Shown piece after piece: positions 11,342-64,000 of a stretch of DNA of 64,000 bases. The DNA is taken from NCBI RefSeq assembly GCF_057098645.1, contig NZ_CM169472.1. One strand, written 5' to 3'. The position numbers and the translations under genes are program-made. Each line of letters opens with the position of its first letter. The stretch's first letter is position 1. Under the pieces are notes generated by a model. That model saw only the letters and a program-made list of their open reading frames with translations, made no database searches and was not told where the DNA came from.

Positions 11342-12073
11342 CTATTTCCGACACGGTGGCGGCGCATAGCCATTGTTATCTGCCGGAAAGGCTTGTCCAG
11401 AGCACGGTGGCAGCGCGTTTTGCGCCTGGCCTTGTAATTCAAAGGCGGCAAAGCCTATTACACCGGTATTACGCACATCGCCTTGCGCCGAATTGGCTGC
11501 GTAGGAATCAGCAACGTTGGCGAACTGAAAAGCCGCTTCGGTATGTTTATCTTTGCGGAATCCTTTAATCGCTAACGAATCTCCGGCATTCACAATATAG
11601 CCGTTGTTATTCAGCGAACCTTGCTTGCCGTTCAGCACATCCAGGCCATCAACCGTAGCAACGATCTCGTAGTTGGTGTTACGACTGTAATTACGGACAT
11701 ATAATTGATAATTCATTCCGACTCTGGCATGGACAATATAGCGTGGTTCATTATTGGATGAATCATAAACACGCGTAATAGGTAGAGAATTAAAATTACC
11801 ATCGCGAATAGCATATTCCAGTTCGTTAATACGAATGCTATAAACGCGGTCGTAGCCGGAAGGAACATTAGTCGAATAACTAATAACGATCATCTCCGCC
11901 GGATCGCGCCAGGCTCGCTCAGCAGATACGCCCTGAACCGTTGAGTGCACATCCCCACCCCAGGCGGTGCCGACATTGCCCGATGCACTGCTATTATACT
12001 GCGCATTACTGGAACAACCGGCCAGCAGCACGATTAATGCCACCAACGCGCTACGTACTTTCCATTTTTTCAT
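11342..12073 (-). CDS. Predicted lipoprotein of unknown function (accessory gene between speB and speA)
   Basis: 243-aa ORF with signal peptide and LLAGCSS lipobox; Asn/Ser/Tyr-rich; no family recognised. Confidence 0.6.
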   Translation of the reverse strand: MKKWKVRSALVALIVLLAGCSSNAQYNSSASGNVGTAWGGDVHSTVQGVSAERAWRDPAEMIVISYSTNVPSGYDRVYSIRINELEYAIRDGNFNSLPITRVYDSSNNEPRYIVHARVGMNYQLYVRNYSRNTNYEIVATVDGLDVLNGKQGSLNNNGYIVNAGDSLAIKGFRKDKHTEAAFQFANVADSYAANSAQGDVRNTGVIGFAAFELQGQAQNALPPCSGQAFPADNNGYAPPPCRK

Positions 12074-12218
12074 AACCGTTCCCTCTGCATTTAATTAATG
12101 CAGCGATTGTAGGGAGATTATTTAATAAGAAAAGCAGCTAAATTATTTTTAAGAATATATAAAAAGAAAGCGGACCGATTTACGTAAATAAATCGACCCG
12201 CCAGCAGAATAATCTTAA

Positions 12219-14195
12219 TTATTCATCTTCAAGATAGGTATAACCGTACAAACCTGCCTCGAACTCTTCAAGGAACTGTTGTTGCAGTTCAGCATCAAGA
12301 TCGGTTTTCTTCACTTGATCACGGAACTGAGTTAACAGCGTTTTCGGATCGAGCTGTACATATTGCAGCATGTCCGCCACGGTATCGCCTTCGTCAGACA
12401 GTTCCACTTCTACACTACCGTCAGGGAAGACGAACACGTCAACCGCTTCGGTATCACCGAACAGGTTGTGCATGTTGCCGAGGATCTCCTGATATGCGCC
12501 GACCATAAAGAAACCGAGCATCGGCGGATTCTCTGGATCGTACTCCGGCATAGGCATTGTCGTGGCAATACCATCACCATCGATATAGTGGTCGATAGCA
12601 CCGTCAGAGTCACAGGTAATATCCAGCAGCACAGCGCGGCGTTCCGGCACTTGATCCAGCCCTTCCAGCGGCAGAACCGGGAACAACTGGTCGATCCCCC
12701 ACGCATCCGGCATCGACTGGAACAGCGAGAAGTTGACGTACATTTTGTCCGCCATACGTTCCTGCAGCTCGTCGATAATCGGACGATGAGCACGGTTTTG
12801 CGGATCCAGCTGCTTTTGCACTTCATGGCACATGCTCAAATAAAGCTGCTCAGCCCATGCACGTTCTTGCAGGCTAAAGGTGCCGGAAGAGTAGCCGATA
12901 TGAATGTCGTGCAGATCCATCTGGCTGTCGTGTAACCATTCACGCAGAGAACGGCGAGTTCCCGGTTCGTGCATCTCCTGCCAGGTTTCCCACATGCTTT
13001 GCAGCGCGCGCGGCGCATCTTCTGCAGGCGCGGTCGGCACCGTGTATTCGTTACGTTCCACGCCGATGATATTAGACACCAGCACGGTGTGATGCGCAGT
13101 CACTGCACGACCCGATTCAGTGATTACCGTCGGATGCGGCAGACTGTTTTCTTCACACGCATCACCAATCGCCCAGATGATGTTGTTGGCATATTCATTG
13201 AGGCCGTAGTTTACCGAACAGTCGGACTGCGAACGAGTACCTTCATAATCCACGCCCAGACCGCCGCCGACGTCGAAGCACTGAATATTGACGCCCAGCT
13301 TGTGCAGTTCCACATAGAAACGCGCCGATTCACGAACGCCTGTGGCGATATCGCGAATATTCGCCATCTGCGAACCGAGGTGGAAGTGCAGTAGTTGCAG
13401 GCTGTCGAGACGCCCGGCTTCACGCAGGGTTTCAACCAGTTGCAGTACCTGAGTCGCAGCCAGGCCGAACTTCGATTTTTCCCCGCCGGAGGACTGCCAT
13501 TTACCCGAGCCCTGCGAAGCCAGACGTGCACGCACGCCCAGACGAGGAACGACATTCAGACGTTCTGCTTCATCCAGCACAATGGCGATTTCTGACATCT
13601 TCTCAATGACCAGATAGACCTTGTGCCCCATCTTCTCGCCAATTAATGCCAGGCGGATATATTCGCGGTCTTTATAACCGTTGCAAACGATGACGCTACG
13701 GGTCATGCCAGCATGTGCCAGCACTGCCATCAACTCGGCTTTGGAACCGGCTTCCAGACCCAGCGGTTCGCCCGAATGAATCAGGGACTCAATCACGCGA
13801 CGGTGCTGGTTAACTTTGATCGGATAAACAAGGAAGTAATCGCCGTTATAGCCGTAGGATTCCCGCGCACGTTTGAACGCGGCGTTAATGGAACGCAAAC
13901 GGTGCTGCAGGATCTGCGGGAAACAGAACAGTGCAGGCAGACGCTGACCCTGTGCTTCACGAGTTTTCACTAACTGCGCGAGATCGACGCGAGCTTCCGG
14001 GACGTCCGGGTCCGGGCACACGCTGATGTGGCCCAGCTCGTTAACGTCATAGTAGTTATTGCCCCACCAGGCAATATTGTAAGTACGCAGCATCTTGCTG
14101 GCTTCCTGGGAGCTCATTGCAACCTCCTGCATGGAGCGTAGTACACCGTGTTCGCCCGCTGACGAAGGCAAACCCATAGACATGTCGTCAGACAT
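12219..14195 (-). CDS. speA: Biosynthetic arginine decarboxylase
   Basis: [25 protein letters not shown]... PLP-dependent decarboxylase, 658 aa from ATG at 14195. Confidence 0.95.
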
Positions 14196-14203
14196 AGCGA
14201 ACC

Positions 14204-14335
14204 TCAAATTATTTTATTAAGTGTAAAACAGTTAACGACTATCGCAGCCTGGAACTGCGATAACAACCCATAAGCACATGGATTTTCCAGCAGTGAATGC
14301 TGACGCTCCAACTGCGCAACCGGTTTCTTTTTCAT
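14204..14335 (-). CDS. yqgB: Small protein YqgB (43 aa)
   Basis: Reverse-strand translation read directly: [43 protein letters not shown]. Confidence 0.7.
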
Positions 14336-14470
14336 AACATTATTAAGCACATAACCGAACGTAAGTGTGACAGTTCGGCGAAACCACGAGAAAACTCTTG
14401 TTTTTACAAGAGCGCCCTTGTTCAGTCCTCAGTAACTGTAACCAGCTCTTGAATCCTGAGAAGCGCCGAG

Positions 14471-14686
14471 ATGGGTATAACATCGGCAGGTATGCAAAGC
14501 AGAGATGCAGAGTGCGGGGAACGAATCTTCACCAGAACGGTGAGACAGGTTAAGCAGCAGACAACGGTTCATTATTTCGTATCACCTCCACGGCCGCCTG
14601 TTAAGACGAACCCACAAGCCAAAACTCTGATTTCAACCCGGCTGGAAGTGGCAACACGAAAGAAACGTCGTGTGCTTTTTATTTAA
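14471..14686 (+). CDS. yqgC: Small hypothetical protein (YqgC position)
   Basis: 71-aa ORF between yqgB and metK, matching K-12 gene order; no functional evidence. Confidence 0.4.
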
Positions 14687-14989
14687 GCCGCGCGCCGCGT
14701 TTTATACCCCACAATGGCAGAAAATTGCAAAAGATAAATACGCAGAATGCCGGCATTGTCAGGAAAAATTTCCAGCCACGTTTTTAACAGAATGAGACAC
14801 GATTCAAAAAAAAGTGGAAATCGGGTGAAGAATTGACCTAAAATAGCCATCCAGATGTTAATCCATCCATACCGATTAACACTCAGACTGCCAGTGTTTT
14901 TAACCTGCAGAGTCGTGGTAGGATCCGCTACCACAGAAAATCCACACAACAGTTTGAGCTAACCAAATTCTCTTTAGGTGATATTAAAT

Positions 14990-16144
14990 ATGGCAAAACA
15001 CCTTTTTACGTCCGAGTCCGTCTCTGAAGGGCATCCTGACAAAATTGCTGACCAAATCTCTGATGCCGTTTTAGACGCGATCCTCGAACAGGATCCGAAA
15101 GCACGCGTTGCTTGCGAAACCTACGTAAAAACCGGCATGGTTTTAGTTGGCGGCGAAATCACCACCAGCGCCTGGGTAGACATCGAAGAGATCACCCGTA
15201 ACACCGTTCGCGAAATTGGCTATGTGCATTCCGACATGGGCTTTGACGCTAACTCCTGTGCGGTTCTGAGCGCTATCGGCAAACAGTCTCCTGACATCAA
15301 CCAGGGCGTTGACCGTGCCGATCCGCTGGAACAGGGCGCGGGTGACCAGGGTCTGATGTTTGGCTACGCAACTAATGAAACCGACGTGCTGATGCCAGCA
15401 CCTATCACCTATGCACACCGTCTGGTACAGCGTCAGGCTGAAGTGCGTAAAAATGGCACTCTGCCGTGGCTGCGCCCGGACGCGAAAAGCCAGGTGACTT
15501 TCCAGTATGACGACGGCAAAATCGTTGGTATTGATGCTGTCGTGCTTTCCACTCAGCACTCTGAAGAGATCGACCAGAAATCGCTGCAAGAAGCGGTAAT
15601 GGAAGAGATCATCAAGCCAATTCTGCCCGCTGAATGGCTGACTTCTGCCACCAAATTCTTCATCAACCCGACCGGTCGTTTCGTTATCGGTGGCCCAATG
15701 GGTGACTGCGGTCTGACTGGTCGTAAAATTATCGTTGATACCTACGGCGGCATGGCACGTCACGGTGGCGGAGCATTCTCTGGTAAAGATCCATCAAAAG
15801 TGGACCGTTCCGCTGCGTACGCAGCACGTTATGTTGCAAAAAACATCGTTGCTGCTGGCCTGGCCGATCGTTGTGAAATTCAGGTTTCCTACGCAATCGG
15901 CGTGGCTGAACCGACTTCCATCATGGTAGAAACTTTCGGTACTGAGAAAGTGCCTTCTGAACAACTGACTCTGCTGGTACGTGAGTTCTTCGACCTGCGC
16001 CCATACGGTCTGATTCAGATGCTGGATCTGCTGCACCCGATCTACAAAGAAACCGCAGCATACGGTCACTTTGGTCGTGAACATTTCCCGTGGGAAAAAA
16101 CCGACAAAGCGCAGCTGCTGCGCGATGCTGCCGGTCTGAAGTAA
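14990..16144 (+). CDS. metK: S-adenosylmethionine synthetase
   Basis: [29 protein letters not shown]..., 384 aa. Confidence 0.97.
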
Positions 16145-16163
16145 TCTTTCTTCACCTGCGTTC

Positions 16164-16195
16164 AAAGGCCAGCCTCGCGCTGGCCTTTTTCTTTT
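16164..16195 (+). terminator. Intrinsic terminator downstream of metK
   Basis: GC hairpin aaaggccagcctcgcgctggcc followed by a T-run. Confidence 0.75.
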
Positions 16196-16580
16196 ACCTC
16201 ACCGCGGTGGATAGGCGTTCACGCCGCATCCGGCAAAAAAACTGCCCGCACAATAACATCATTCTTCCTGATCACGTTTCACCGCAAATTATCATCACAA
16301 CTGAAACCGATTACACCAACCACAACAGACAAAGATTTGTAATATTTTCATATTATTATTCGGTTTTCACAGTTGTTACATTTCTTTTCAGTAAAGTCTT
16401 AATTGCAGATAACAGCGTTTAATCTATGATGATATAACTCAATTATTTTCATGCACTTAAATCATAACTAAGATAAATGTTAGTGTAAGCGATTACACTG
16501 ATGTGATTTGCTTCACATCTTTTTATGTCGTACTCACCTATCTTAATTCACAATAAAAAATAACCATATTGGAGGGCATC

Positions 16581-17975
16581 ATGCCTGACGCTAAAAAACA
16601 GGGGCGGTCAAACAAGGCAATGACGTTTTTCGTCTGCTTCCTTGCCGCTCTGGCGGGATTACTCTTTGGCCTGGATATCGGTGTAATTGCTGGCGCACTG
16701 CCGTTTATTGCAGATGAATTCCAGATTACTTCGCACACGCAAGAATGGGTCGTAAGCTCCATGATGTTCGGTGCGGCAGTCGGTGCGGTGGGCAGCGGCT
16801 GGCTCTCCTTTAAACTCGGACGCAAAAAGAGCCTGATGATCGGCGCAATTTTGTTTGTTGCCGGTTCGCTGTTCTCTGCGGCTGCGCCAAACGTTGAAGT
16901 ACTGATTCTTTCCCGCGTTCTGCTGGGGCTGGCGGTGGGTGTGGCCTCTTATACCGCACCACTGTACCTCTCTGAAATTGCGCCGGAAAAAATTCGCGGC
17001 AGTATGATCTCGATGTATCAGTTGATGATCACTATCGGGATCCTCGGTGCTTATCTTTCTGATACCGCCTTCAGCTACACCGGTGCATGGCGCTGGATGC
17101 TGGGTGTGATTATCATCCCGGCAATTTTGCTGCTGATTGGTGTCTTCTTCCTGCCAGACAGCCCACGTTGGTTTGCCGCCAAACGCCGTTTTGTTGATGC
17201 CGAACGCGTGCTGCTACGCCTGCGTGACACCAGCGCGGAAGCGAAACGCGAACTGGATGAAATCCGTGAAAGTTTGCAGGTTAAACAGAGTGGCTGGGCG
17301 CTGTTTAAAGAGAATAGCAACTTCCGCCGCGCGGTGTTCCTTGGCGTACTGTTACAGGTAATGCAGCAATTCACCGGGATGAACGTCATCATGTATTACG
17401 CGCCGAAAATCTTCGAACTGGCGGGTTATACCAACACTACCGAGCAAATGTGGGGGACAGTGATTGTCGGCCTGACCAACGTACTTGCCACCTTTATCGC
17501 AATCGGCCTTGTTGACCGCTGGGGACGTAAACCAACGCTAACGCTGGGCTTCCTGGTGATGGCTGCTGGTATGGGCGTACTCGGTACAATGATGCATATC
17601 GGTATCCACTCTCCGTCGGCGCAGTATTTCGCCATCGCCATGCTGCTGATGTTTATTGTCGGTTTTGCCATGAGTGCCGGTCCGCTGATTTGGGTACTGT
17701 GCTCCGAAATTCAGCCGCTGAAAGGCCGCGATTTTGGCATCACCTGCTCCACCGCCACCAACTGGATTGCCAACATGATCGTTGGCGCAACGTTCCTGAC
17801 CATGCTCAACACGCTGGGTAACGCCAACACCTTCTGGGTGTACGCGGCTCTGAACGTACTGTTTATCCTGCTGACATTGTGGCTGGTACCGGAAACCAAA
17901 CACGTTTCGCTGGAACATATTGAACGTAATCTGATGAAAGGTCGTAAACTGCGCGAAATCGGCGCTCACGATTAA
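16581..17975 (+). CDS. galP: Galactose:H+ symporter (MFS sugar porter)
   Basis: [43 protein letters not shown]..., 464 aa. Confidence 0.95.
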
Positions 17976-49382: not shown

Positions 49383-49796
49383 TTATACAGGCCAGTTGAT
49401 GGATCGATTGTTATTAATGATATCTTCATGAGTCGGTGTCTCACCCAGCTTACCGAAGCTGGCATAAAGTGAAGGCAGACGGGCCCGTCCTTCTCCCTTT
49501 TTCGCCAGAGGGAAAGCGCGAAGCATGGCGGCAGCCTCCCAGTCACAACAATAGGATGGTGTGCACGGCTGCTGACGCCATGATTCAGCGATAGAGCCTG
49601 AAAATACGGGGTCAAAGCCGGTATCATTAACCAGAGTCATCGTGACCTGTACTGCGGCTGGATGATCTCCTGCTACTGCAACTGCTAGGCGACCGCGGCT
49701 CCCTTCAGGTAGTCTATTGTGGTCAACTAAAACTGGCCTCCGCGTTAGAGTTTTTCCAGTATCGGTTTTCTGATTCGTTTGGTGGTAACCCACCAT
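49383..49796 (-). pseudogene. 3' remnant of a gene truncated by the IS629-like insertion (possibly NAD(P)-binding reductase-like)
   Basis: Minus-strand ORF whose N-terminal portion runs into the IS left end at 49797; only about 138 C-terminal codons lie outside the IS. Confidence 0.4.
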
Positions 49797-49850
49797 TGAA
49801 CCGCCCCGGGAATCCTGGAGACTAAACTTCCTGAGAAAGAGGTAAACAGG

Positions 49851-50177
49851 ATGACTAAAAATACTCGTTTTTCCCCTGAAGTCCGTCAACGGGCAGTCCG
49901 TATGGTTCTGGAAAGTCAGGGCGAATATGACTCACAATGGGCGACAATTTGTTCCATTGCTCCAAAGATTGGCTGTACGCCGGAGACTCTGCGTGTCTGG
50001 GTTCGCCAGCATGAGCGGGATACCGGGGGCGGTGATGGAGGGCTCACCACCGCTGAACGTCAGCGTCTGAAAGAGCTGGAGCGTGAAAATCGTGAACTGC
50101 GCCGCAGTAACGATATCCTTCGCCAGGCTTCCGCTTATTTTGCGAAGGCGGAGTTCGACCGCCTCTGGAAAAAATGA
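49851..50177 (+). CDS. IS3-family transposase OrfA
   Basis: 108 aa, [35 protein letters not shown]... Confidence 0.85.
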
Positions 50178-51064
50178 TGCCACTGCTGGATAAGCTGCGT
50201 GAGCAGTACGGGGTCGGACCGCTATGCAGCGAACTGCATATTGCCCCGTCAACGTATTACCACTGTCAGCAACAGCGACATCATCCGGATAAACGCAGTG
50301 CCCGTGCGCAGCGCGATGACTGGCTGAAGAAAGAGATACAGCGCGTATACGATGAAAATCACAAGGTATACGGTGTGCGTAAAGTCTGGCGTCAGTTGTT
50401 ACGGGAAGGTATCAGAGTGGCCAGATGCACTGTGGCACGTCTCATGGCGGTTATGGGACTTGCCGGTGTTCTCCGGGGTAAAAAGGTCCGTACGACCATC
50501 AGCCGGAAAGCCGTTGCCGCAGGCGACCGCGTAAACCGTCAGTTCGTGGCAGAACGACCTGACCAGCTGTGGGTGGCTGATTTTACTTACGTCAGCACAT
50601 GGCAGGGCTTCGTCTATGTGGCGTTCATCATTGATGTGTTTGCCGGATACATTGTGGGGTGGCGGGTCTCATCGTCCATGGAGACGACATTCGTGCTGGA
50701 TGCACTGGAGCAGGCGTTATGGGCCCGTCGACCGTCCGGCACGGTCCATCACAGTGATAAAGGTTCTCAGTATGTATCGCTGGCCTACACACAGCGGCTT
50801 AAGGAAGCCGGATTACTGGCATCAACAGGAAGTACAGGCGACTCGTATGACAACGCGATGGCGGAGAGCATCAATGGTCTTTACAAAGCGGAGGTAATAC
50901 ACCGTAAGAGCTGGAAAAACCGTGCAGAAGTGGAACTGGCCACACTCACGTGGGTGGACTGGTATAACAATCGACGATTGCTGGAAAGGCTGGGCCATAC
51001 TCCTCCGGCAGAAGCAGAAAAAGCTTATTATGCTTCCATCGGAAACGATGATCTGGCAGCCTGA
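50174..51064 (+). CDS. IS3-family transposase OrfB
   Basis: 296 aa, DDE domain. Confidence 0.85.
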
Positions 51065-51106
51065 GTTCACAGATAAAACACTCTCCAGGAAACCCGGGGC
51101 GGTTCA

Positions 51107-52391
51107 TTTTTTCCTGACGCTTGCCGAGTCCGGAGAACGAAAAACCGCAGTGGACAAATTATTAATGAAGCCCCTGTACCAGCAGGAGATGCAGTTATAT
51201 TCCAGATACAAAAGTGAACTGGCTGTCTGGAAAAACAAGGAAGAGCTTTTAAAGGCTCAGAAAAAAGCATTGTTGTCAAAACTGAATAAAGAACTCCGCA
51301 AAGGCGCGGATGAGTCAGAAACCCTCAGACAACTGGAAGTACTTCAGAAAAACAGTGCGGAAGAACCTGTGAGGTATAAATTCATTTTTAATGATGCCAC
51401 GACTGCGGCAATTAAGAATCAGCTTTGTGGTAAATGGCGTTCAGTGGGTATTATGTCAGATGAAGCCGGTATTATATTTGATGGATATACCCTGTCTGAG
51501 TTGCCTTTTATTAACAAAATGTGGGATGGCTCTGTATTGTCTGTGGACAGAAAGAATGAACCCGAACAGATGATTGAAAATGCCAGAATGACGTTATCCC
51601 TCATGGTGCAACCAGGTCTTTTTGACCGATATATGGAGCGAAAAGGTTCTGTTGCCAGGGACAGTGGTTTTCTTGCCCGTTGTCTTATCAGTAAACCTGC
51701 AACCACGCAGGGGAAACGCTTTATTAACGGAGCTGTGATTCCGGGAGGATCATTAACGGCATTTCATGAACGATTAATGGAACTGGCCAGAGGCAGTATT
51801 GAAAAATCCAGTGAGGATGAACGGTATTGTCTGCATTTTTCGCCTGAAGCGCAAAAAATATTTATTGAGCACTATAATGTTCTGGAGCAGGATTTATCCC
51901 CTTCCGGACCCTTAAGCCCGTTTCGGGGACATGTTTCAAAAAAAACAGAAAACATTGCAAGAATTGCAGCGTTATTTCAGTATTTCAGCTATGGTGAAGG
52001 GAAAATCTCTGCCGATATCATGACGTCTGCTGTCGTAATAAGTTCGTGGTACACAGATGAATATAAAAAATTATTTGCGTTACCTGATGAATCTGAACTG
52101 CAGCAGAAGGACGCCGAGGAGCTGTTCGACTGGCTCATTGAGGAGTGCCGCGGAGAATGCCCGCCCCGTGTCAGGAAAAATTATATTCTCCAGTGTGGCC
52201 CGGGCTGGTTCAGAAACAGGAAAAAACTGAACGCATTGCTGAACATTCTTGAATCTCAGTTCAGGCTTTCTGTCGTGCCGGAAGGAAAAACCATGTATGT
52301 TCTGCTTCCCCAGATAGCCAGTTTAAAGTTGTCTGATGTCTCTGGTATTTTTACCTCGGGTTATCACTACAATAAGCTGAGAGCGAAGTAA
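51107..52391 (+). pseudogene. DUF3987/YfjI-like protein (P4-like island gene), 5'-truncated by the IS insertion
   Basis: The long ORF 50922-52391 begins inside the IS and has no start of its own downstream of the IS end; roughly 428 codons resemble the YfjI/DUF3987 family as I recall it. Confidence 0.5.
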
Positions 52392-52450
52392 CCGGTGAGC
52401 AGTTTTTCTCCATTATGCTTCAGACTTAGATGATTGATTATTATGGGGAT

Positions 52451-52490
52451 TTCATCACCGATATTCAGATGTATGAATATCGGTGATGAA
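52451..52490. promoter_or_regulatory. Perfect 17-bp inverted repeat with 6-bp spacer (operator- or terminator-like)
   Basis: ttcatcaccgatattca-gatgta-tgaatatcggtgatgaa, read directly from the sequence, between the DUF3987 remnant and the convergent hypothetical gene. Confidence 0.5.
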
Positions 52491-52712
52491 CTAAAGCTCA
52501 GGAGCTGCGTGGTGGTGATGAATCAACAGGCATATAACTGATACCCGCCGGTCAGAAGTTCCAGCCTGCGACTTTCCTGTCTGCGTGCCCGCAGTCCGGC
52601 GTTCAGGTGCAGCGTGTGACAGAACGCACGGAGAGCGAAACGGCAGGCAGACAGGCCGTTCAGTCAGCCCTGGCACCCTGCCCGGATACCAGCTTCCCTG
52701 AAACAACTGGCA

Positions 52713-53321
52713 TCAGGTGCGCTTATCGTCAACCGTTGTGCGGTATGCCAGGAGCACGTACTGATCCATCAGATCCGTCAGTGCTGCGCTCTGCTTCTGA
52801 CGGTTGATGATCCATTCCTCCAGCTCTTTTTCTGATTTCCGTTTCAGATTCTCCGTCCAGTCGTCAAGGCAGTTTCCGGTCATTAAATCAAGCCAGCAAA
52901 GCCAGACCAGTTTGAGGCGCAACTCCGTGCCACCAAACTGACGGAAGAGGCTGATCAGTTTATTTGCCAGCGAACGCTGCCTCAGACGTTCACATTCAGA
53001 CAGGAGAATGCCTTCCAGCATCGGATGATGAACCAGCAGATGTTCACTGGTGCATAAATTCACTATCAGATCATCATCCAGGGGCGGCGTGGTCCGTTTG
53101 TCCGGACCATAAATCAGCCGGTGCAGACTCTGGGGTACGATGGCAATCTCCGGTTTTTCACCATTGAATGACACCCACCCGGGCGTCAGATTATGGAAGT
53201 AGTAGATATTCGGATGACACACGCCCCAGGATACGGCGTGCCGGGTGAAGCCGGTCAGCCATTTCTGGTAGCTTTCGTGGAGCAGCTCGTAACGGGTCTG
53301 ATACTGTGGTTTCATTTTCAT
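52713..53321 (-). CDS. Hypothetical protein (P4-like island), downstream of the alpA-like gene
   Basis: ORF 52713-53462; probable start at MKMKPQYQTRYELL (ATG 53321, preceded by a GAGGA Shine-Dalgarno); no family recognised. Confidence 0.5.
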   Translation of the reverse strand: MKMKPQYQTRYELLHESYQKWLTGFTRHAVSWGVCHPNIYYFHNLTPGWVSFNGEKPEIAIVPQSLHRLIYGPDKRTTPPLDDDLIVNLCTSEHLLVHHPMLEGILLSECERLRQRSLANKLISLFRQFGGTELRLKLVWLCWLDLMTGNCLDDWTENLKRKSEKELEEWIINRQKQSAALTDLMDQYVLLAYRTTVDDKRT

Positions 53322-53401
53322 ATTCCTCACGGGGGATAACAGGCAGCAGAACGCCGCCGGCAGGCCGGAGACTGCGTCTGCTGCAGATGAACGGTTAAGA
53401 A

Positions 53402-53608
53402 TTACGGACGGGACTGTGCAATACGCGCCTGCAGCCAGGCTTCCACTTCGCTTTTCAGCCATCGGGAGCTGCGGCCCATTTTGATGGGCGCAGGAAAGTC
53501 ACCATCCTTGATGAGTTTGTAAAACCACTTATCGGTCAGGCCGGTCAGTTGAGTGATAAATGCCATGTCGACCATCTGGTCATCCATCAGTGAAACTGGG
53601 GTGATCAT
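53402..53608 (-). CDS. AlpA-family phage/island transcriptional regulator (excisionase-like HTH)
   Basis: ...MAFITQLTGLTDKWFYKLIKDGDFPAPIKMGRSSRWLKSEVEAWL... matches the AlpA/Phage_AlpA pattern; exact start ambiguous among several in-frame ATGs. Confidence 0.7.
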   Translation of the reverse strand: MITPVSLMDDQMVDMAFITQLTGLTDKWFYKLIKDGDFPAPIKMGRSSRWLKSEVEAWLQARIAQSRP

Positions 53609-54255
53609 GAGAATGTTCCTCCGGATGTTGTTAAACCAGCCGGTGTGGTCATGAAAACAACGCACCACCTTCACCGGCATAACAACCGGGGAGAAACGTA
53701 AAAAATAATCGGGAATGTGACCGCCAGGAGATAAACGGGGAGGTTACGGTGGCTGAGCCGTACCGGTATGCCGGGTGGTTGTTACGAAACGATGCTTCCG
53801 CACGCGCGCGCGATAAAGAAGGGATGATTTTCGTGAGGAAGAGGGGAAAACTGGCGTTCTGATAATTGCAGAGTTATTTACGGGGCGGTTACGATGGGGC
53901 AGACCGTGTCCGGTGGGCAGGCGACAGGTATCACCGATGGGATAAGACTGTCTGATTGGTATTATAAATATATAAGAGAGAGCAAACACATGAGATCAAA
54001 TACATGAGTTCATATATGTGAAATAAACACGGTGAGTGTGATCAGTGGGCATGTGCAAAATGGCATCTGAATCGATCGCAGTTTGGCATTCGAATCGATC
54101 ATGATTTGGCATCCATCTCCGATCACAGTTTGGCATCACAATCGATCACGATTTGGCATGCTTCCGATCATTGATTGGCATCCTGCCAGTCACTCCGGGA
54201 ATTAACTCTTTTCACCACAGTCTCCATTGCCGTGTTTAAACCAGTGGAGACGTCA

Positions 54256-55821
54256 ATGTCCAGAAAGAGAAAATCCAGGAGCACTATGGAAACCTGTTTT
54301 AAGATCCTTCAGCTCAAGTTCGACAAGAAGCTGACTAACCGTTGTATCGGACTGACGTTACACATCAGCGCCTCAACCGTTTTTGAGGTTCTTGCCCGCT
54401 TCAAAGCCTCTTCTCTGTCATGGCCATTACCTGCTGATATATCCCATGACACGCTGGAGAAACTCATTTTTCCGCCCAAAGACACCTTTGCATCAGAGCT
54501 TGTAATGCCTGACATGTTGTACTTCGATACGGAAATGAGAAAACCAGGTGTGACGCGGCAACTGTTGTGGATGGAATACAAGGCACAGGCGGGTAACAAA
54601 GCGATGGGATACTCGCACTTCTGCCGTTGCTACCGGGAGTGGAAAAAAACGCGACGTCTCTCCATGCGCCAGGAGCATCGTGCCGGCGAAAAGCTTTTTA
54701 TCGACTTCTGTGGTCCTACGGTTCCTGTTATTAATCCGGACACCGGTGAGATACGCCGCGTGGCAATCTTCGTGGCCGTAATGGGGGCGTCCAACTATAC
54801 CTACGTTGAAGCGTGCGAAGGTCAGGACATGATGTCATGGTTAAATGCCCACAGCCGTTGCCTGACCTTCCTGGGCGGCGTACCGAAGCTGCTCATCCCC
54901 GATAACCTCAGAAGCGCAGTGAAAAAGGCCGATCGATATGAGCCTGTCATCAACGACAGTTATCAGGCACTGGCTGAGCACTATGGCACGGTTATCATCC
55001 CGGCCCGACCACGCAAACCTAAAGATAAACCAAAAGCAGAAAACGGCGTCCTCATCGTTGAACGATGGCTTCTTGCCCGCATCCGTAATGAAACCTTCCA
55101 CACGCTCAGGGCGCTGAATGCGCGCCTTAGGGAGTTACTGACAGACATGAATAACCGGCCAATGAAGGGGTACGGCAATCAAACCCGTGCAGAACGCTTC
55201 CGCATACTGGATGCGCCAGCACTCTCTCCGCTGCCTCTGGCACCTTATGAATACACGGAATACAAAGCTGTGAAGGTTGGCCCTGACTACCACGTTGAAT
55301 ATGCCCGTCACTGGTACTCCGTTCCACACGAACTGGTCGGTCAGCGTCTGTCACTGAAGGCGGGGCAGTCGGTGGTACAGCTCTGGCACAAGGGGCAGTG
55401 TGTGGCGCAACATCCGCGCAGCACACATGAATATAAACACACAACCAATCCGCTTCACATGCCAGAGCGCCACCGGCAGCACGGGACATGGACACCGGAA
55501 CGCCTGATCGAGCAGGGAAAACGTACGGGCCCGTCCACAGGCCGGGTGGTTGAATCCATGCTGAAGGCAAAACCCCATCCGGAACTGGCTTATCGTGCAG
55601 TTCTGGGGCTGCTGGCACTTCAGAAAAAATACGGCCCGGAACGGCTGGAAAAGGCCTGTTACGTTGCCCTGCACTATAACGCCCCTGACAGACGCTTTAT
55701 CGACAATCTGCTGCGTCACCATCGGGAGAACCTGGAGCTTCCATTATCCCGCCAGGGCGAACAACATCCGGCATATGCTTCAGAGCATGAAAACCTGCGT
55801 GGTCCGGGCTACTACCACTGA
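54256..55821 (+). CDS. istA: IS21-family transposase IstA
   Basis: 521 aa from MSRKRKSRSTMETCFKILQLKFDKKL...; HTH plus DDE domain. Confidence 0.8.
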   Translation: MSRKRKSRSTMETCFKILQLKFDKKLTNRCIGLTLHISASTVFEVLARFKASSLSWPLPADISHDTLEKLIFPPKDTFASELVMPDMLYFDTEMRKPGVTRQLLWMEYKAQAGNKAMGYSHFCRCYREWKKTRRLSMRQEHRAGEKLFIDFCGPTVPVINPDTGEIRRVAIFVAVMGASNYTYVEACEGQDMMSWLNAHSRCLTFLGGVPKLLIPDNLRSAVKKADRYEPVINDSYQALAEHYGTVIIPARPRKPKDKPKAENGVLIVERWLLARIRNETFHTLRALNARLRELLTDMNNRPMKGYGNQTRAERFRILDAPALSPLPLAPYEYTEYKAVKVGPDYHVEYARHWYSVPHELVGQRLSLKAGQSVVQLWHKGQCVAQHPRSTHEYKHTTNPLHMPERHRQHGTWTPERLIEQGKRTGPSTGRVVESMLKAKPHPELAYRAVLGLLALQKKYGPERLEKACYVALHYNAPDRRFIDNLLRHHRENLELPLSRQGEQHPAYASEHENLRGPGYYH

Positions 55822-55837
55822 CAGAAGGAACAACAGT

Positions 55838-56593
55838 ATGAGTGATAACCTGTTAAACAAACTGACCCAACTGAAACTCCCGGCGATGGCCGGGAGCCTG
55901 ATACGGCAGCGGGAAACGCCTCAGACCTACGACGAACTGTCGTTCGAGGAAAGGCTGACGCTGCTGGTTGATGACGAGCTTCTGAGCAGGGAAAACAGCC
56001 GTGTGGCACGGTTGAGAAAAAATGCCGGCCTGAAATACCAGGCAACACCGGAAGGGCTGCGCTATCCGGCCTCAAGAGGTCTGCGGGCTGAACAGATGAG
56101 AGAACTGCTGAACGGCCACTACATAACCCACAGGAAAAACCTGCTGATAACCGGTCCGACAGGATGTGGCAAGAGCTGGATAGCCAATGCGCTGGGCGAA
56201 CAGGCATGTCGACAGAAACACAGCGTCCGGTACTGTAGAACCGGGCGATTACTGGAACAACTGGCTCAGGGACGTGTTGATGGCAGCTGGCTGAAATATC
56301 TGAAACAGTTGCAAAAAATACAGGTTCTAATCCTGGACGATCTGGGGCTGGAACAGTTAAGTAACGCCCAGTGTAATGACCTTCTGGAGCTCATAGAGGA
56401 TCGTTACGGACAAAGCAGCACGATAGTGGTAAGCCAGTTCCCGGTAGATAAATGGCATGGTCTGATGGAGAACCCAACAACAGCAGATGCCATCCTGGAC
56501 AGACTGGTACATAACTCACACCGAGTGGTCCTTCAGGGAGAGTCACTGAGGAAAAATCCCCCGGTAGTGGAAAGCAGCGAAAAAACGCGTTAA
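55838..56593 (+). CDS. istB: IS21-family helper ATPase IstB
   Basis: MSDNLLNKLTQLKLPAMAG...; Walker A GPTGCGKS; AAA+ IstB-like. Confidence 0.85.
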   Translation: MSDNLLNKLTQLKLPAMAGSLIRQRETPQTYDELSFEERLTLLVDDELLSRENSRVARLRKNAGLKYQATPEGLRYPASRGLRAEQMRELLNGHYITHRKNLLITGPTGCGKSWIANALGEQACRQKHSVRYCRTGRLLEQLAQGRVDGSWLKYLKQLQKIQVLILDDLGLEQLSNAQCNDLLELIEDRYGQSSTIVVSQFPVDKWHGLMENPTTADAILDRLVHNSHRVVLQGESLRKNPPVVESSEKTR

Positions 56594-57568
56594 AAAGCGG
56601 TAGAAAAAGTTAAGTTCCCGGTTGATCGAATGGATGCGAATCGCTGATCGGACTTCGATGCCAATCCGTGATCGAATAGAGCGGAATACGCAGGCATGAT
56701 GAGAACGCAGTAGCAACAGACTGCGCTATCCCTGATAGCTGGCGTATAACCTGCGTATATAAAACGTACCAGCAACGCACGTGAACAGAGTGCATTAAGC
56801 ATCCGTCGTTGACACCGACCTGGTGAGTGACAGTCTGAGAGACCGGTTAAGTGGTGGTACGGGAGTAATGAGTTTGGGGAGGGTACCAGAATGTCAGTCT
56901 GGTACGGTATGCTGACAGTATCACGTTAATTGCAGCATAAAGTGATGAGAGGCTAATGGAAGTTAAAACCAGAGCAGTTCCGTCGTTGTTCATCCCGGGA
57001 GACACTGGAAAAAGTGATTTCCCACACGCGTTATAAGCTTACTCTAGCGGAGATGGAAGCCTTCAACTCTGCGGTCGATCACCGACTGGCAGAACTGACA
57101 ATGAACAAGCTTTACGATCGTGTTCCCGCTTCAGTCTGGAAATATGTCATCTGAGCGTTCGGTAATCACAACTGCATCGCGCCAGGTGTTATCCGCTTTG
57201 TGATTCTTATTGGCTCTTCTCAGGTTATTAAAAGCTGAATATGTTCCTGTTGTCGGGAACCAGGATAATACCGGGAACGTTAAGCGGTATAGCGACAACA
57301 AAGAATTCGAAATCAAAAGGGAATGGTGCCGGAGGCGTGGGCGGTAATGGGCTGATTTTCAGGTATTACCGGCTTACAGCGTGTGGTTGATATTGAGGGG
57401 CTGTGAGTTTCACGTATTTGTCAGAAACCCAGACGAGTTTTCCTGTATGAGACGAAATAAGGCAGCGGCAATACATGGAAAAATTTAATATGCTATGAAG
57501 GAGAACCTGTCGGTTACGCTTAATATAACCGGTACACTGTCAGCTCAGGGGATACATGAACCGTTATC

Positions 57569-57772
57569 TCACCAGCTACACAGTATATACACACTGACGC
57601 TGACAGTAGTCAGCAGGACCACAATAATCAGTGCCAGCAGTATGGTAACGATACGGTCTGTATTCCGGTAATAGCCGAAGGGGTCGACAGAACCACAATA
57701 CGGGCAACACACAGTATTATGAGTAATCGCGTTTCCACAGTCCCAGCACTTCTTTTTGCGTATCACCATCAC
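57569..57772 (-). CDS. Small zinc-ribbon membrane protein (hypothetical)
   Basis: 67 aa; CWDCG...CPYCG zinc ribbon followed by one hydrophobic helix (IVTILLALIIVVLLTTVSVSVYIL). Confidence 0.4.
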   Translation of the reverse strand: MMVIRKKKCWDCGNAITHNTVCCPYCGSVDPFGYYRNTDRIVTILLALIIVVLLTTVSVSVYILCSW

Positions 57773-57973
57773 TCCCTCCTCACAGCCTTACCCGTAACCG
57801 GTTTTTTACATTAAAAAAACAACGCTGAAAATTCAACCGTCAGTCCGGAGACGACCGTTCGGGTTATCTCAGAGTGCCTGAGATATTGCCTGGTTGGAGA
57901 TCACTTCAGGGACTCTGCGCATTTTTTACGGCGTGGTTAATCCGTATGAACGAAACCATACGGAGATTTAACC

Positions 57974-58543
57974 ATGACCTACAAATACAACCCCTTCTGG
58001 CAGCAACGTATTCGTGAGACGGTGCGGCACGCACTGGATGTTCATCCCCGCCTGACGGCATTGCGGGTTGATCTGCGTCTCCCGGATGTACCGGCAGCAA
58101 CGGACGCGGCTGTGATATCCCGCTTCATCAATGCCCTGAAAGCCCGAATCGACGCTTACCAGAAACGTAAGCATCGGGAAGGTAAACGCGTGCATTCCTC
58201 GACCCTGCATTACGCCTGGGCCCGGGAGTTCGGGGAGCTTAAAGGCAAAAAACACTATCACCTGCTGCTGCTGGTCAACCGGGATACCTGGTGTCGTGCC
58301 GGCGATTACCGCGCTCCGGGGTCACTGGCCGGAATGATTAAACAGGCCTGGTGCAGTGCCCTGGGGGTGGATGCCGGATGTTATGCCACGCTGGTGCATT
58401 TTCCGGTCAGGCCGGCGGTGTGGCTGGAACGCGATGATGAAACCGGCTTTCAGCAGGTACTGGAACGTGCTGGCTATCTGGCGAAGGAGCATACCAAAGC
58501 TCGCGGCACCGGTGAGCGCAACTTTGGCTGTAGCCGGAGTTGA
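57974..58543 (+). CDS. YagK/YfjJ (inovirus Gp2-like) family protein
   Basis: 189 aa; N-terminal MTYKYNPFWQQRIRETVRHALDVHPRLTALRVDLRLP resembles the YagK/YfjJ family found in CP4-type islands (from memory); Shine-Dalgarno present. Confidence 0.5.
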   Translation: MTYKYNPFWQQRIRETVRHALDVHPRLTALRVDLRLPDVPAATDAAVISRFINALKARIDAYQKRKHREGKRVHSSTLHYAWAREFGELKGKKHYHLLLLVNRDTWCRAGDYRAPGSLAGMIKQAWCSALGVDAGCYATLVHFPVRPAVWLERDDETGFQQVLERAGYLAKEHTKARGTGERNFGCSRS

Positions 58544-58795
58544 ACACGACAGACGCGCCAATACCCGGCAAACCAAAAGTATGGGTTGTTGTCTGGTGGC
58601 AACGATGTATCCACTCGCCCACTGACTGTTTTTTACGTCAGTGTTCCATTGTGTGACAACCACAATGCTGTAACAGCAACCAGCCTGCTTTACCCAAACT
58701 CCAGTCCAGATTTTAACTGAACCGCCATTCACACCTGACCACGCTGCCCGTACCGGGACGGCTGTTGCCTGCGTGTCGTCTGGCGGCTGAGGAAT

Positions 58796-59203
58796 ATGAC
58801 TATGTACGCAAAATCCTTTCTCGCACTTGATGGCAACGGGCGTCTGACGGGTGCCCGTACCGCACAGACTGCACCTTACGATCGCTACACTTGCCACCTT
58901 TGCGGCAGTGCACTCAGATACCACCCGCAATACGACACTGAGCGTCCCTGGTTTGAACACACTGACGACGGGCTGACAGCGCACGGTCAGCAGTGTCCTT
59001 ATGTCAGACCGGAACGCAGGGAGATACGCTTGATTAAGCGTCTGCAGCAATTCGTACCGGATGCCTTACCCGTGGTGCGTAAAGCCAGCTGGCACTGCAG
59101 ACAATGTCACCACGATTATTATGGGGAGCAGTACTGCACAAACTGCCAGACCGGAGGATTCAGTATTCCCCGGACAACTCGGGAGGAAATATGCGAATTC
59201 TGA
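58796..59203 (+). CDS. Cys-rich putative zinc-binding protein, paralog A
   Basis: 135 aa; CHLCG...PWFEH and WHCRQCHHDYYGEQYCTNCQTGG motifs; GAGGA Shine-Dalgarno. Confidence 0.55.
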   Translation: MTMYAKSFLALDGNGRLTGARTAQTAPYDRYTCHLCGSALRYHPQYDTERPWFEHTDDGLTAHGQQCPYVRPERREIRLIKRLQQFVPDALPVVRKASWHCRQCHHDYYGEQYCTNCQTGGFSIPRTTREEICEF

Positions 59204-59625
59204 ACTGTTATATGGCGAATGACAGCAAGGGGCATTTTGTTACGGCGAAAGAAGCAGCGAAGCACAACCGCCGGGACGTTTTGTGCTGTGTGTCCTGTGG
59301 ATGCCCGTTAACACTTCAGCGGGGCAATGACGGACAACAACCGTGGTTTGAACATGACCAGATGACTGTCGCTGAGAAAATCCTGCTGCGATGCACCTGG
59401 CTTGACCCGGCAGAGAAAGAGGCCCGTCGTTTGCATCTGCAGGGTATGACAGTTCTGGATTATACGGTGAAGGTGAGAAAGTGGTTTTGTGTGATGTGTG
59501 ACGAAGATTATGAAGGAGAAAAGTGCTGCCCGCGTTGTGGTACCGGGGTATACAGCAGGGCGTGGGGGCGGCAGGATGTGCCGTCGGAAGATGCCAGGGC
59601 TGATAATCCGTTACAGAGGTTGTAA
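59191..59625 (+). CDS. Cys-rich putative zinc-binding protein, paralog B (translationally coupled to A)
   Basis: 144 aa from ATG 59191 (GGGAGG Shine-Dalgarno); shares CxxCG...PWFEH and W.C..C.(D/H)DY.GE..C..C.TG motifs with paralog A; 13-nt overlap with A. Confidence 0.55.
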   Translation: MRILNCYMANDSKGHFVTAKEAAKHNRRDVLCCVSCGCPLTLQRGNDGQQPWFEHDQMTVAEKILLRCTWLDPAEKEARRLHLQGMTVLDYTVKVRKWFCVMCDEDYEGEKCCPRCGTGVYSRAWGRQDVPSEDARADNPLQRL

Positions 59626-61012
59626 TGGTTGCCTCTGGCGCAGTTTGCGGTGATGCCGTTCCCGGGAATGGATTGCCAGTGCGGGGACTGTGGAGCTTAA
59701 TTCCGGTGTTGGTGGCCTTTCCGTTGATTTTGAGCCAACAGCCCTCCTGTGACTGACAGGCTGCCTCGTCATTCCATACGTATCTTCAGGTGAACAGATG
59801 CATGTCTGAGCGTACTCACGCAGCCGGCCCGGCAACCGCGGTGGTACTACGCTGGCTGCGAGAAAATACAGAAAGCACCAGAATACGCTCTCCTGTTGCT
59901 GATCAATCAGGATCTCATGCACCTACCGGGATCTAGGGCTAGAACTGATGAAACCGATTCGCACCTGGCTGAGTTAATGCTACAGGCCAGGGCATCACTA
60001 CCCCCTGACGAGCACTGTACTGTGGTATGCAGTTACAGGGGGCGTGTGCAGCCACACCTGAAAGCAGTGAGTCGTTCACGGCATTCAAAAACACGTGCCT
60101 TTCGTTCGCCGTTCCTGTGATGGCCGGCATCATTTGCTAAGCCGTTACCGACGTTATTCCCTCCGGGACACGCCTCTGGTTGAGGCTTTGCCCGGAGCAA
60201 TCGAATGAAAATAAGTTAAGTCACCGAAAGGGAGGATGTAGTCAACCGGGGGAACAGTAATAAGCCGTCGTGCTTTTATCGTACAAGTGTGTTGCGTTTT
60301 GCACCGAAAATACGATAGAGGTCGTTTATGGATTCCGCAGGGAGTGCTGATTATTATTCACTGGCAGCAGACAGCGATGTGTGTGCAGGCATTCAGGGGG
60401 ATGTTGTCAGCAGAAGGGTGCGTATAGCAGATTGTTGTTATACATGGCGTATGAAGTATTACCAGTCATGCGGAGTAGTGTGGTGAGGGGCTGTATGAGA
60501 AATCGCCACCTTCTTGTCAGAGAGGGAACGCTACCATGAAAGTCAAAAGCGATAACGCAGACCGGTACGATCGGTAGGTAAAACTGTAGCGGTGTGCTGC
60601 CGCCGAGGTCAGAATAATCTGCGCGTTTTTACGCCAGCGCCACCGACGAACAGCAGGAGATTGAGGGGAATTTGGCGGCGATAAAGACGTAGAAGAGAAA
60701 AACGGGCAATTTGCCGCATGCCCACAGAATCAGTGAGATCGTTAGCGACAGCAAAATGATCGGCAGCCAGCGGCGGCCTGCAATATCGGGATGAAGGAGA
60801 TCCTACGATATCGATGCTGCACCTGATATGTACGATCAGTAAATAGAGTACGAAACAGCAAACACGACGATAATAACGCTGGCAGCGGTGCCTGTCAGGC
60901 AAACGCCCACACGCAATAAAATAAATCAACCATCGCAGGGCCGTGATCATCCGCATACACCGCTGATGACGCGTCTAAAAACGCGTCAATATGACTTCCC
61001 CGGAACATTACC

Positions 61013-62254
61013 TCATTTCAGGGTATGGAGAATTTTTAACATCGAGTTATCTATGGTCTGTTTGACTTTTTCGTAATAGATCGGTTCAGATAATGACGAA
61101 TCCCAGGTATGAATATCGTTCTTATTAAAAGGAATGCATTTCATGGCTACTGCCTTTAACTGTTTCCCTTTTTGCTCATACTCATTGATATCATTAATGG
61201 TAAATTTCAAACTCTCTTTTCTTGCTTCTGTTATTTCAGTTGGGCATACCAGCTTTATATCTCCTAAGGTAAATGTACTGACCCCGGTGATGAAAAATCT
61301 CTCGGGGATTTCTGTATAGTGCCGAGTATTCCAGATTAAGCCATTAAACATACTATGAGAATGAGTTTTATTTTCGATATAATACTGATGCGTTCTCCAG
61401 TCACTAATGCCTGAGAGACTCATTACCATATTAATGATCATATTTGGGATAGGGCGATACCACATACTGAATACAGTAATTACAACTGGTATGCATATTA
61501 AAACAACTATGAATCCAGTGAATTTATCACCATTTCTGCGCTCATTAAGATGTATGGCACCAGGCAGAATGCCAATAGTAACAATAGCTGCTGTTAAGGC
61601 AAGGAGCATTAGCATTTCAACCAAATCACTTGTCTCCTCACTAAAATCAAGTTGGGTAAGCAGAAATAACATAGGTAATATTTGAACGATCCCGGGAGTC
61701 ATAAATTGCAAGGGTAAAAAACATAACAATCCTGGTTTTCTTGGTAATTTCTCATAGTTATCAGATTTATGCCAACTAAATCTCTTTGTTTTAAATAGAT
61801 TAAAATAGGATACAAAATAACTAAAAGCAAGCATCAATACAAAACCGGTGATACTTATGGAATAACCATTCCATCCATAAAGATAGTAAATATAGTAGCC
61901 AACAATTATACTACAGCATATAAACAAGCTATTTAGATAACAAACAGTGGAAATTCGATGTGGTATGCTTGGATAATTTTTGAAATTATCTTCATGTAAT
62001 GTGTAAATGAGGATTAGAATAAAAGAGGAAATGAAAATTACTAAGCTAAACCCAGAAAACGATACTATTATAAAAACAAAAATGATACCTATGGCTGAAC
62101 TGAGGCTTACAGTATCAAAGAAAATATCTAATCTATCTATGTTTGACAGATAGAACCATATAACAGCCATTGTGCATCCAGTAATAAATGTAGATGAGGT
62201 TATTACTGAAATAATGAATTTTTTATTCAACAGCTTTATGACAGATTTATTCAT
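61013..62254 (-). CDS. AT-rich polytopic membrane protein with C-terminal soluble domain (unknown function)
   Basis: 413 aa; multiple predicted transmembrane helices in the N-terminal roughly 270 aa, hydrophilic C-terminus; codon usage and base composition visibly AT-rich compared with flanking DNA. Confidence 0.6.
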   Translation of the reverse strand: MNKSVIKLLNKKFIISVITSSTFITGCTMAVIWFYLSNIDRLDIFFDTVSLSSAIGIIFVFIIVSFSGFSLVIFISSFILILIYTLHEDNFKNYPSIPHRISTVCYLNSLFICCSIIVGYYIYYLYGWNGYSISITGFVLMLAFSYFVSYFNLFKTKRFSWHKSDNYEKLPRKPGLLCFLPLQFMTPGIVQILPMLFLLTQLDFSEETSDLVEMLMLLALTAAIVTIGILPGAIHLNERRNGDKFTGFIVVLICIPVVITVFSMWYRPIPNMIINMVMSLSGISDWRTHQYYIENKTHSHSMFNGLIWNTRHYTEIPERFFITGVSTFTLGDIKLVCPTEITEARKESLKFTINDINEYEQKGKQLKAVAMKCIPFNKNDIHTWDSSLSEPIYYEKVKQTIDNSMLKILHTLK

Positions 62255-62884
62255 AATCCGAATTCCATACCTGATAAAATTCGTATTGTAGTGAGGACCG
62301 ATTTTTTGAGCAACTTATAACCATCGCTTAAAGCTACTTGCTACCATACATGCCGTTATCCCGAACCATAAAGCGCTTGGCAGTAACACCAACATCACAG
62401 ACAGATACTGCGGTTGCGCCAAATAAAAGAATGGCGGATAAGGTCGGCGGATTGCAACGTGATGCTGTGCTGTAGGATGACTTCTGCGGTCTCGTCCAGC
62501 GCCAGCCACTCCTGGCGGATTTTGTGTGGGGGCATGGTGTGTTCCTTTTTGTGTTGTTGGTTGCGTATAGTGCTTGTTGATGATGAAAACCGGTGTGAGA
62601 TATTTTTGCCAAAACAACTAACACTGATCAGTGTAGGTAACGAGCTTTTCAGACATAATATGGTGATGATTTACACTGGAAAAACAGGACGTAACACTGA
62701 ATAGCTCTGGAGACGATTTGCTTGAAGTGGCGTGCTATTTGTTGAAAGAAGAATTTCTGATGATACCTTATTTTAAAGGAGGCTAAAGGGAGAGGAGAGA
62801 GCCCTGTTGAAATCAACAGGACTTAATAGCTCCTCTCCGAAGGGCAAGGAGATCACCCGTGCGCCTGGTTAGGTGAAGAAGTAC

Positions 62885-64000
62885 TCAGCGTGGTTGCAGA
62901 CAGTTATCTTCTTTCCAGCCGTACAGCCACTCCATGCCGCGATAAAACTCTGCCTGCGATTTCCCTTTCCACAGCAGGTTACGAACCTGGCGTTCTACTC
63001 CCGCGGCGTGATAAACCCGTCCCATCTCACGGGTCGACCAGACAATACGCGCGGTGCGCGGAATACGTACCGACTCATACAGCGCAAAGGCTTGCGCCGC
63101 ATCACCCTCACACTGCGCCAGCGCCTTACCCAGCGTTACCGCGTCTTCCAGCGCCATACAGGCACCTTGCGCCATATATTGCGCCACTGGATGGGCTGCA
63201 TCGCCCACCAGCGTAATGCGGTTAGTGCCCCATTTCGCGACTGGTTCACGGTCGGCAGTTGACCAGCGTCGCCATGAAGTCGGTTTATCCAGCATCTGGC
63301 GCGGACGCGGGTGAATCCCCTCAAAGTAAGAGAGCACTTCCTCTTTACTGCCATCCTTCACGCCCCACTCTTCCTGCTGGCGGCTGTGGAATGTCACCAC
63401 CAGGTTATACTGCGTGCCGCCGCGCAAAGGGTAATGCACCAGGTGACAGTGCGGCCCCGCCCACAGTACCGGTGCGTTAATGCGCAAATCTTCCGGCATA
63501 TCGGCACAATCGATAACCGCACGGTAGACAACATGTCCGGTGACACGCGGCGCATCGCCCAATAAGCTCTGGCGCACCACTGACTTCACGCCGTCACAGC
63601 CAATCAGAATATCGCCGGTCCAGCTATTGCCGCGATCGTCAAACACGGTGACATCGTCTTCCGTCTCGCGAATATCCACGACGTTGGTGGAGGTGTGATA
63701 TTCCACGTCCGGATGCGTCAGTACCGCTTCCCACACCGAGGCGTGAATATCAACCCGGTGGATCACCGCGTAAGGACCGCCGAAATGGTCACGAAAGGCC
63801 TGCCCGGTTTCAATGCGCACCACTTCTTCGGCGTTCACCGCATCCATCATGGTAATGTGATCGGTAAACACCGCGCGCTGGCGGGCAACTTCGCCGACGC
63901 CGAGGCTGTCCAGCGCCGAAAACGCATTTGGCCCCAACTGGATGCCCGCGCCAATCTCACCGATCTCATGCGCCTTTTCCAGCAGCACCACTTTGATCCC
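62885..64000 (-). CDS. FAD-dependent aromatic-ring monooxygenase (salicylate/3-hydroxybenzoate hydroxylase-like), N-terminus beyond window end
   Basis: ORF runs to the window edge; ...VLLEKAHEIGEIGAGIQLGPNAFSALDSLGV... and C-terminal GDAAHPVAQYMAQGACMALEDA motifs typical of group A flavin monooxygenases. Confidence 0.7.
   Translation of the reverse strand, partial: GIKVVLLEKAHEIGEIGAGIQLGPNAFSALDSLGVGEVARQRAVFTDHITMMDAVNAEEVVRIETGQAFRDHFGGPYAVIHRVDIHASVWEAVLTHPDVEYHTSTNVVDIRETEDDVTVFDDRGNSWTGDILIGCDGVKSVVRQSLLGDAPRVTGHVVYRAVIDCADMPEDLRINAPVLWAGPHCHLVHYPLRGGTQYNLVVTFHSRQQEEWGVKDGSKEEVLSYFEGIHPRPRQMLDKPTSWRRWSTADREPVAKWGTNRITLVGDAAHPVAQYMAQGACMALEDAVTLGKALAQCEGDAAQAFALYESVRIPRTARIVWSTREMGRVYHAAGVERQVRNLLWKGKSQAEFYRGMEWLYGWKEDNCLQPR

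Follow-up and report, generated by a model that had tools for sequence, protein, structure and literature searches.

The locus described here centres on an insertion sequence of the IS3 family, IS629, which occupies positions 49797-51106 on the plus strand of the window, by which we mean the whole 64,000-nucleotide stretch of DNA that was analysed. The element (copy 2) is complete, 1310 bp long, and has the ends TGAACCGCCCCGGG...CCCGGGGCGGTTCA. On reading the sequence, TGAACCGCCCCGGG was present at both termini when read inward; the terminal inverted repeats are imperfect, with a TG start and a CA end, as in IS629. Both reading frames of the element are intact: orfA (49851-50177, plus strand, 108 aa; PF01527 HTH_Tnp_1, E=6e-13) and orfB (50174-51064, plus strand, 296 aa, with a DDE integrase core; PF00665 rve, E=5e-28), which overlap at positions 50174-50177. 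Near-identical copies carry the RefSeq label "IS3-like element IS629 family transposase", and in copies matching this one a programmed frameshift is annotated along with an AL1L pseudoknot. Copy 2 is a complete IS629 and, from its sequence, an intact and probably active IS3-family element.

Copy 2 was compared with another IS629 (copy 1; 4509-5818, minus strand). The two are 97 % identical and form the one long inverted repeat (1310 nt) found in the window by the repeat search. Copy 1 looks like an ordinary simple insertion, with a clean 3-bp GTG target-site duplication on its two sides. At copy 2 no target-site duplication was found, as its left flank ends in CAT (...CCACCAT) and its right flank begins with TTT (TTTTTTCC...), and the 3-bp duplication of a simple insertion is thus missing. 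This concerns the history of the site and not the identity of the element.

The right flank of copy 2 is a truncated gene of the yfjI family (DUF3987; 51107-52391, plus strand). It is contained in a 489-aa open reading frame (50922-52391) which opens inside IS629, in a frame that differs from that of orfB. The DUF3987 part starts only at 51107/51108 and has no start codon of its own. The remnant belongs to the family (PF13148, E=2.2e-83, profile positions 38-363 of 364), and 426 of 427 amino acids are identical to residues 68-494 of the full-length YfjI-family protein WP_001297234.1 (494 aa). Lost from the gene are its first 200 nt (66 codons and two bases), the start codon and the upstream region, corresponding to 67 amino acids or 13.6 % of the protein, so that there is no complete coding sequence with its own start and the frame is open only from within IS629. 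Related islands have an intact yfjI, which reads ...GGGCCGGTCTCTCTTTTTTTCCTGACG across the breakpoint. The breakpoint lies inside the T7 run of the gene, of which six of the seven T's are retained in the window. Judging from this junction, the truncation of yfjI is caused by IS629. The T7 homopolymer (window 51107-51112; L002 4003-4009) is also a site of variation of another kind: many frameshift alleles differing in the length of the T-run are public (P0293, P0294, P0297), and contigs in 133 index blocks stop exactly within it.

The left flank is composite. A 168-aa minus-strand open reading frame (49383-49889) opens inside IS629 and consists of three pieces, namely 93 nt of IS629 read in antisense, 82 bp of the end of an IS911B element (49715-49796) and, as its last 330 nt, a gene-derived part (49383-49712). 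The gene-derived part, on the minus strand, is the pseudogene remnant yjhV, comprising the C-terminal 109 codons and the stop codon of a 248-aa NADP oxidoreductase of the F420_oxidored family. The 82 bp, also on the minus strand, come from an old IS911B copy cut by IS629, and represent its outer end, next to the C-terminus of the transposase. When positions 49383-49797 were compared with IS911B-1 and yjhV (b4286) of E. coli K-12, 410 of 415 nt were identical. The annotation of K-12 MG1655 gives fecE, then the pseudogene yjhV (b4286, 330 nt) and then IS911B-1, which ends 2 nt from yjhV; the remnant in the window is yjhV, with the same sequence, the same position downstream of fecE and the same adjoining IS911B end. 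E. coli O145 RM9872 is identical to the window up to 49796/49797 except for one mismatch at 49716; at the exact position where IS629 begins in the window it runs on, as do other genomes, into a frameshifted transposase of the IS3 family. The 971-bp flank from fecE to IS911B was found with at least 80 % coverage in 2,672 of 5,426 complete genomes, and it was present end to end in all 30 of the matches listed.

As the same yjhV/IS911B junction occurs in K-12 and other E. coli at loci free of IS629, the truncation of yjhV is assigned to IS911B: by this comparison yjhV was cut long before, in an ancestor of the fec locus, by IS911B and not by IS629, and what IS629 cuts on the left side is IS911B. 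The IS911B locus is a recurrent IS629 target. O145 strains (RM9872, L004 7313-10540) carry two more IS629 copies just past IS911B and a restriction-endonuclease fragment; the nearer of these copies is oriented like copy 2 and is 100 % identical to it over the first 88 bp.

The extent of the loss from yjhV was estimated with an exhaustive HMMER search, in which the 109-aa remnant was 78 % identical to residues 141-248 of a 248-aa homologue (P0037). The PF03807 NADP-oxidoreductase Rossmann domain of this homologue covers residues 2-93. The remnant keeps residues 140-248, and 139 of 248 residues (56 %) are gone, including the entire cofactor-binding domain. No Pfam match was obtained for the remnant, and the N-terminal Rossmann NAD(P)-binding domain is missing from it. 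By these comparisons the yjhV remnant, being without its cofactor domain, is dead and non-functional.

A first-pass annotation of the locus had proposed that IS629 truncates the genes on both flanks, leaving two probable pseudogenes. Measured against full-length homologues, genes on both flanks are indeed truncated (yfjI without 67 of 494 amino acids and the left gene without 139 of 248), and both are pseudogenes. In the full-length homologues the start lies further out, by 200 nt for yfjI and by 139 codons for the parent of yjhV, and the native proteins do not begin downstream of the IS boundaries. The annotation was also right that the DUF3987-like frame is startless and is read only out of the IS, as the frame starts at 50922, inside the element, and 67 of 494 amino acids are missing. 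Its assignment of both truncations to IS629 holds for yfjI and fails for yjhV, which was cut by IS911B. The left gene's 5' part was not replaced by IS629, as had been claimed, since the remnant ends at 49712, 82 bp of IS911B intervene, and the junction is as in K-12.

The wider surroundings place the locus in an island. A tRNA-Phe gene (GAA; 38585-38660) is followed in the window by a 420-aa phage-type integrase (38858-40120) and then by fecIRABCDE. By its gene order this is a pheV-type integrative island with ferric citrate uptake, with a layout as in NZ_CP062871.1. The right-hand 12.9 kb of the window has a 99.9 % match in several genomes, and these carry the left flank at 99.9 % as well. 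NZ_CP062871.1 (strain Res13-Lact-PEA14-20; L008) contains both flanks in one island adjoining a phage-type integrase. The order there is Ag43(-), GTPase(-), yfjI(+), hypothetical(-), AlpA-like(-) and, further on, the 3-hydroxybenzoate/gentisate genes, followed by IS elements, cdiI, IS911B(+), yjhV(+), fecEDCBARI(-), IS1 and the integrase(-).

Local BLAST alignment of the window to NZ_CP062871.1 (coordinates of L008) gave three blocks. Window 39252-49797 matched 42001->31456 in reverse orientation (99.92 %), while 51104-54053 matched 7631-10580 (99.93 %) and 56693-64000 matched 10575-17882 (99.89 %), both in forward orientation. The window corresponds to the island of NZ_CP062871.1 with a 23.8-kb segment, from nt 201 of yfjI to the IS911B breakpoint, turned round and with IS629 at the visible junction. 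Strains A1, ML775 and SW070919 have, by coordinates, the same reference geometry as NZ_CP062871.1, and in at least four complete genomes a single pheV island contains both flanks, inverted relative to each other and separated by 22.5-24 kb. The idea that the IS simply marks a cut into the island was not upheld: copy 2 lacks a target-site duplication, and related islands have its two flanks apart from each other and in inverted orientation, which makes the site a rearrangement breakpoint.

Other features were seen along the window. The gap between the second and third blocks is an IS21-family element of 2,639 bp (54054-56692), with istA-like (54175-55821) and istB-like (55595-56593) reading frames and a duplication of about 6 bp (GGCATG), located between AlpA-like and Hha-like genes; it is missing from NZ_CP062871.1 and from a sister draft contig (L009). 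Between 52713 and 53680 the longest open reading frames are of 249 and 92 aa, compared to RefSeq genes in relatives for a 200-aa hypothetical protein and a 68-aa AlpA-family HTH protein, and the mechanically assigned starts probably lie too far upstream. At 9976-10201 there is a direct repeat in tandem, made up of two 113-nt units with 93 % identity.

We consider it likely that copy 2 sits at a rearrangement junction that originated from an IS629-mediated inversion in a fec-carrying pheV island. An inversion would be the simplest origin because the two flanks are found 22.5-24 kb apart and inverted in one pheV island of at least four genomes. The process would begin with an ordinary IS629 insertion into IS911B, for which the expected duplication is CAT, and a second IS629 would insert in the inverted orientation into the T-run of yfjI, with TTT as the expected duplication. 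An exchange between the two 1.3-kb IS629 copies, or an equivalent intramolecular transposition event, would then invert the segment between them and would leave each IS629 with mismatched flanks, a pattern as seen at copy 2. IS elements are known to cause both deletions and inversions in EHEC, and IS629 to be a major source of gene inactivation and genomic deletions there (PMC9943667). Copy 1 was considered as the partner of copy 2 in such an inversion and was rejected on account of its clean GTG duplication.

If the inversion took place as proposed, another IS629 copy in inverted orientation should be present outside the window, some 22-27 kb to the right of 51107, with its IRL abutting the 5' end of yfjI and its IRR abutting the body of IS911B. 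The reciprocal flanks would be ...CTCTCTTTT next to the IRL and CATTATATTCGTGCGG next to the IRR, and the missing 5' end of yfjI may have been relocated rather than lost. Neither the rest of IS911B nor the yfjI 5'/GTPase region was found elsewhere in the 64-kb window. A pattern scan of genome contigs gave 0 matches to the reciprocal junction; as the junction of the window itself, scanned for as a control, likewise had 0 matches, the source genome is absent from that collection and this negative result is uninformative. Exact look-ups found no record of the predicted reciprocal chimeric products of 83 and 32 aa, and a homology search with the predicted reciprocal chimera brought up only fragments at contig edges and alleles with poly-T frameshifts. 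A look-up with 68 aa matched many contigs, which were rejected as IS junctions, being contig breaks in the T-run. No pre-inversion intermediate was found among the 5,426 complete E. coli genomes.

The failure to find the reciprocal junction, in the contig scan as well as in the chimeric-product look-ups, would also be expected if the DNA had been deleted. After a single IS629 insertion, the DNA on one or both sides would have been removed, either by IEE- or transposase-dependent deletion adjacent to the IS or by recombination of two direct IS629 copies in an ancestral island with the yfjI module downstream of fec in the same orientation, and the 5' end of yfjI and the body of IS911B would be truly lost. 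The missing target-site duplication at copy 2 agrees with such an event, and IEE-dependent deletions beside IS629, ranging from a few nt to over 40 kb, are documented (PMC9943667). An IS629 is seen in O145 strains, in the same orientation, 1.34 kb further to the right of IS911B and 100 % identical over its first 88 bp. However, a deletion needs an ancestral gene order that was seen in none of the genomes inspected, and deletion alone cannot yield the order of the window, because in the islands which match both flanks at 99.9 % the yfjI module is turned round with respect to fec. A deletion origin is on balance unlikely compared to the inversion.

The two junctions of copy 2 were then sought in other genomes. 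Of 5,426 complete E. coli genomes, none had the left or the right IS629 junction; two apparent matches to the left junction were rejected, as IS629 there sits 163 bp deeper in IS911B. Draft assemblies contain each of them. The right junction is present in GCA_048063055.1, for which the exact 453-aa product reading from IS629 (ATG at 51030) into yfjI is on record; the contig, which ends 77 bp inside IS629, matches the window with 100 % identity along 3024 bp and does not have the IS21-family insertion. No full-coverage match to this chimera was obtained in a clustered protein database, a miss which is probably due to masking by clustering at 90 % identity, as the exact look-up elsewhere found the product. 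The left junction was found through an exact 162-aa spanning product on three contigs, e.g. that of GCA_048062455.1, which begins 77 bp inside IS629 and runs via yjhV and fec to the integrase. From these matches both halves of the junction are real in natural isolates, although draft contigs cannot show one IS copy linking the two.

Since such contigs end 77 bp inside IS629, short reads cannot phase the two arrangements, and an assembly artefact or a mixed population could be envisaged. In that case IS911B and yfjI would each carry a simple IS629 insertion with its own duplication, and the exits of the 1.3-kb repeat would have been joined wrongly by the assembler or through a flipping subpopulation. 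Against this, the window is contiguous over 64 kb through two IS629 copies and the IS21-family element, which implies a long-read or finished assembly, and the same two truncations would result under either arrangement. We regard this explanation as quite improbable. Slightly less credible still is a more far-reaching view, in which the segment of about 24 kb of the pheV island, including the gentisate/3-hydroxybenzoate genes, would be made by the two inverted IS629 copies into a cassette that can flip, with both orientations occurring in the population, or in which the 453-aa read-out frame would give a DUF3987 protein with a replaced N-terminus that is nevertheless active. Least credible of all is the original proposal, in which a single IS629 insertion took the place of the left gene's 5' part and of the right gene's start, for although frames on both flanks read out of IS629, 82 bp of IS911B separate yjhV from it, the yjhV/IS911B junction exists in K-12 and at IS629-free loci, and the flanks are contiguous in no reference. 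More generally, simple insertion was rejected on the basis of the absent target-site duplication and the position of the flanks in NZ_CP062871.1, 23.8 kb apart and inverted.

Regardless of how the junction arose, the yfjI remnant, having neither its own promoter nor its own start, is by its structure non-functional. If it is expressed at all, this can only be by read-through from IS629, with the in-frame ATG codons at 51030 and 51048, or alternatively a restart at 51165, as possible starts. In the case of stx2::IS629, genes downstream of the insertion have been seen to be transcribed through the IS (PMC7430833). In the promoter scan, no promoter-like site in the neighbourhood of the junction rose above chance. 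Both yjhV and the yfjI remnant should be annotated as pseudogenes, the left truncation should be credited to IS911B, and the 168-aa and 489-aa reading frames should be treated as read-through artefacts. The IS629 junction, seen in 0 of 5,426 complete genomes and in a few drafts, is a lineage-specific structural marker which could serve strain typing. The case is one of a pheV genomic island decaying and being rearranged through ordinary IS activity, and provides one further example of IS629 reshaping E. coli islands without raising a new biological question.

Compared to known systems, the left flank shares its yjhV remnant and IS911B end with the fecE - yjhV - IS911B arrangement of KpLE2 in K-12. 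There IS911B continues and is interrupted by IS30D and IS600, whereas in the window it is instead cut by IS629 after 82 bp. The right flank resembles the WP_001297234.1 module of CP4-57-like islands (Ag43 - GTPase - YfjI - hypothetical - AlpA-like), with the same downstream neighbours, whereas residues 1-67 of YfjI and the upstream GTPase and Ag43 neighbours are absent. Copy 2 differs from known IS629 in having no 3-bp duplication and in its junctions, with the IS911B end and with nt 201 of yfjI, which none of the 5,426 complete E. coli genomes contained. It shares with the IS629 of EHEC and Shigella (also annotated as IS1203) the length of 1310 bp, the TG...CA ends and the overlapping orfA and orfB, and with the IS629 rearrangement polymorphisms of these bacteria both the inactivation of a gene and a junction that joins unrelated sequences.
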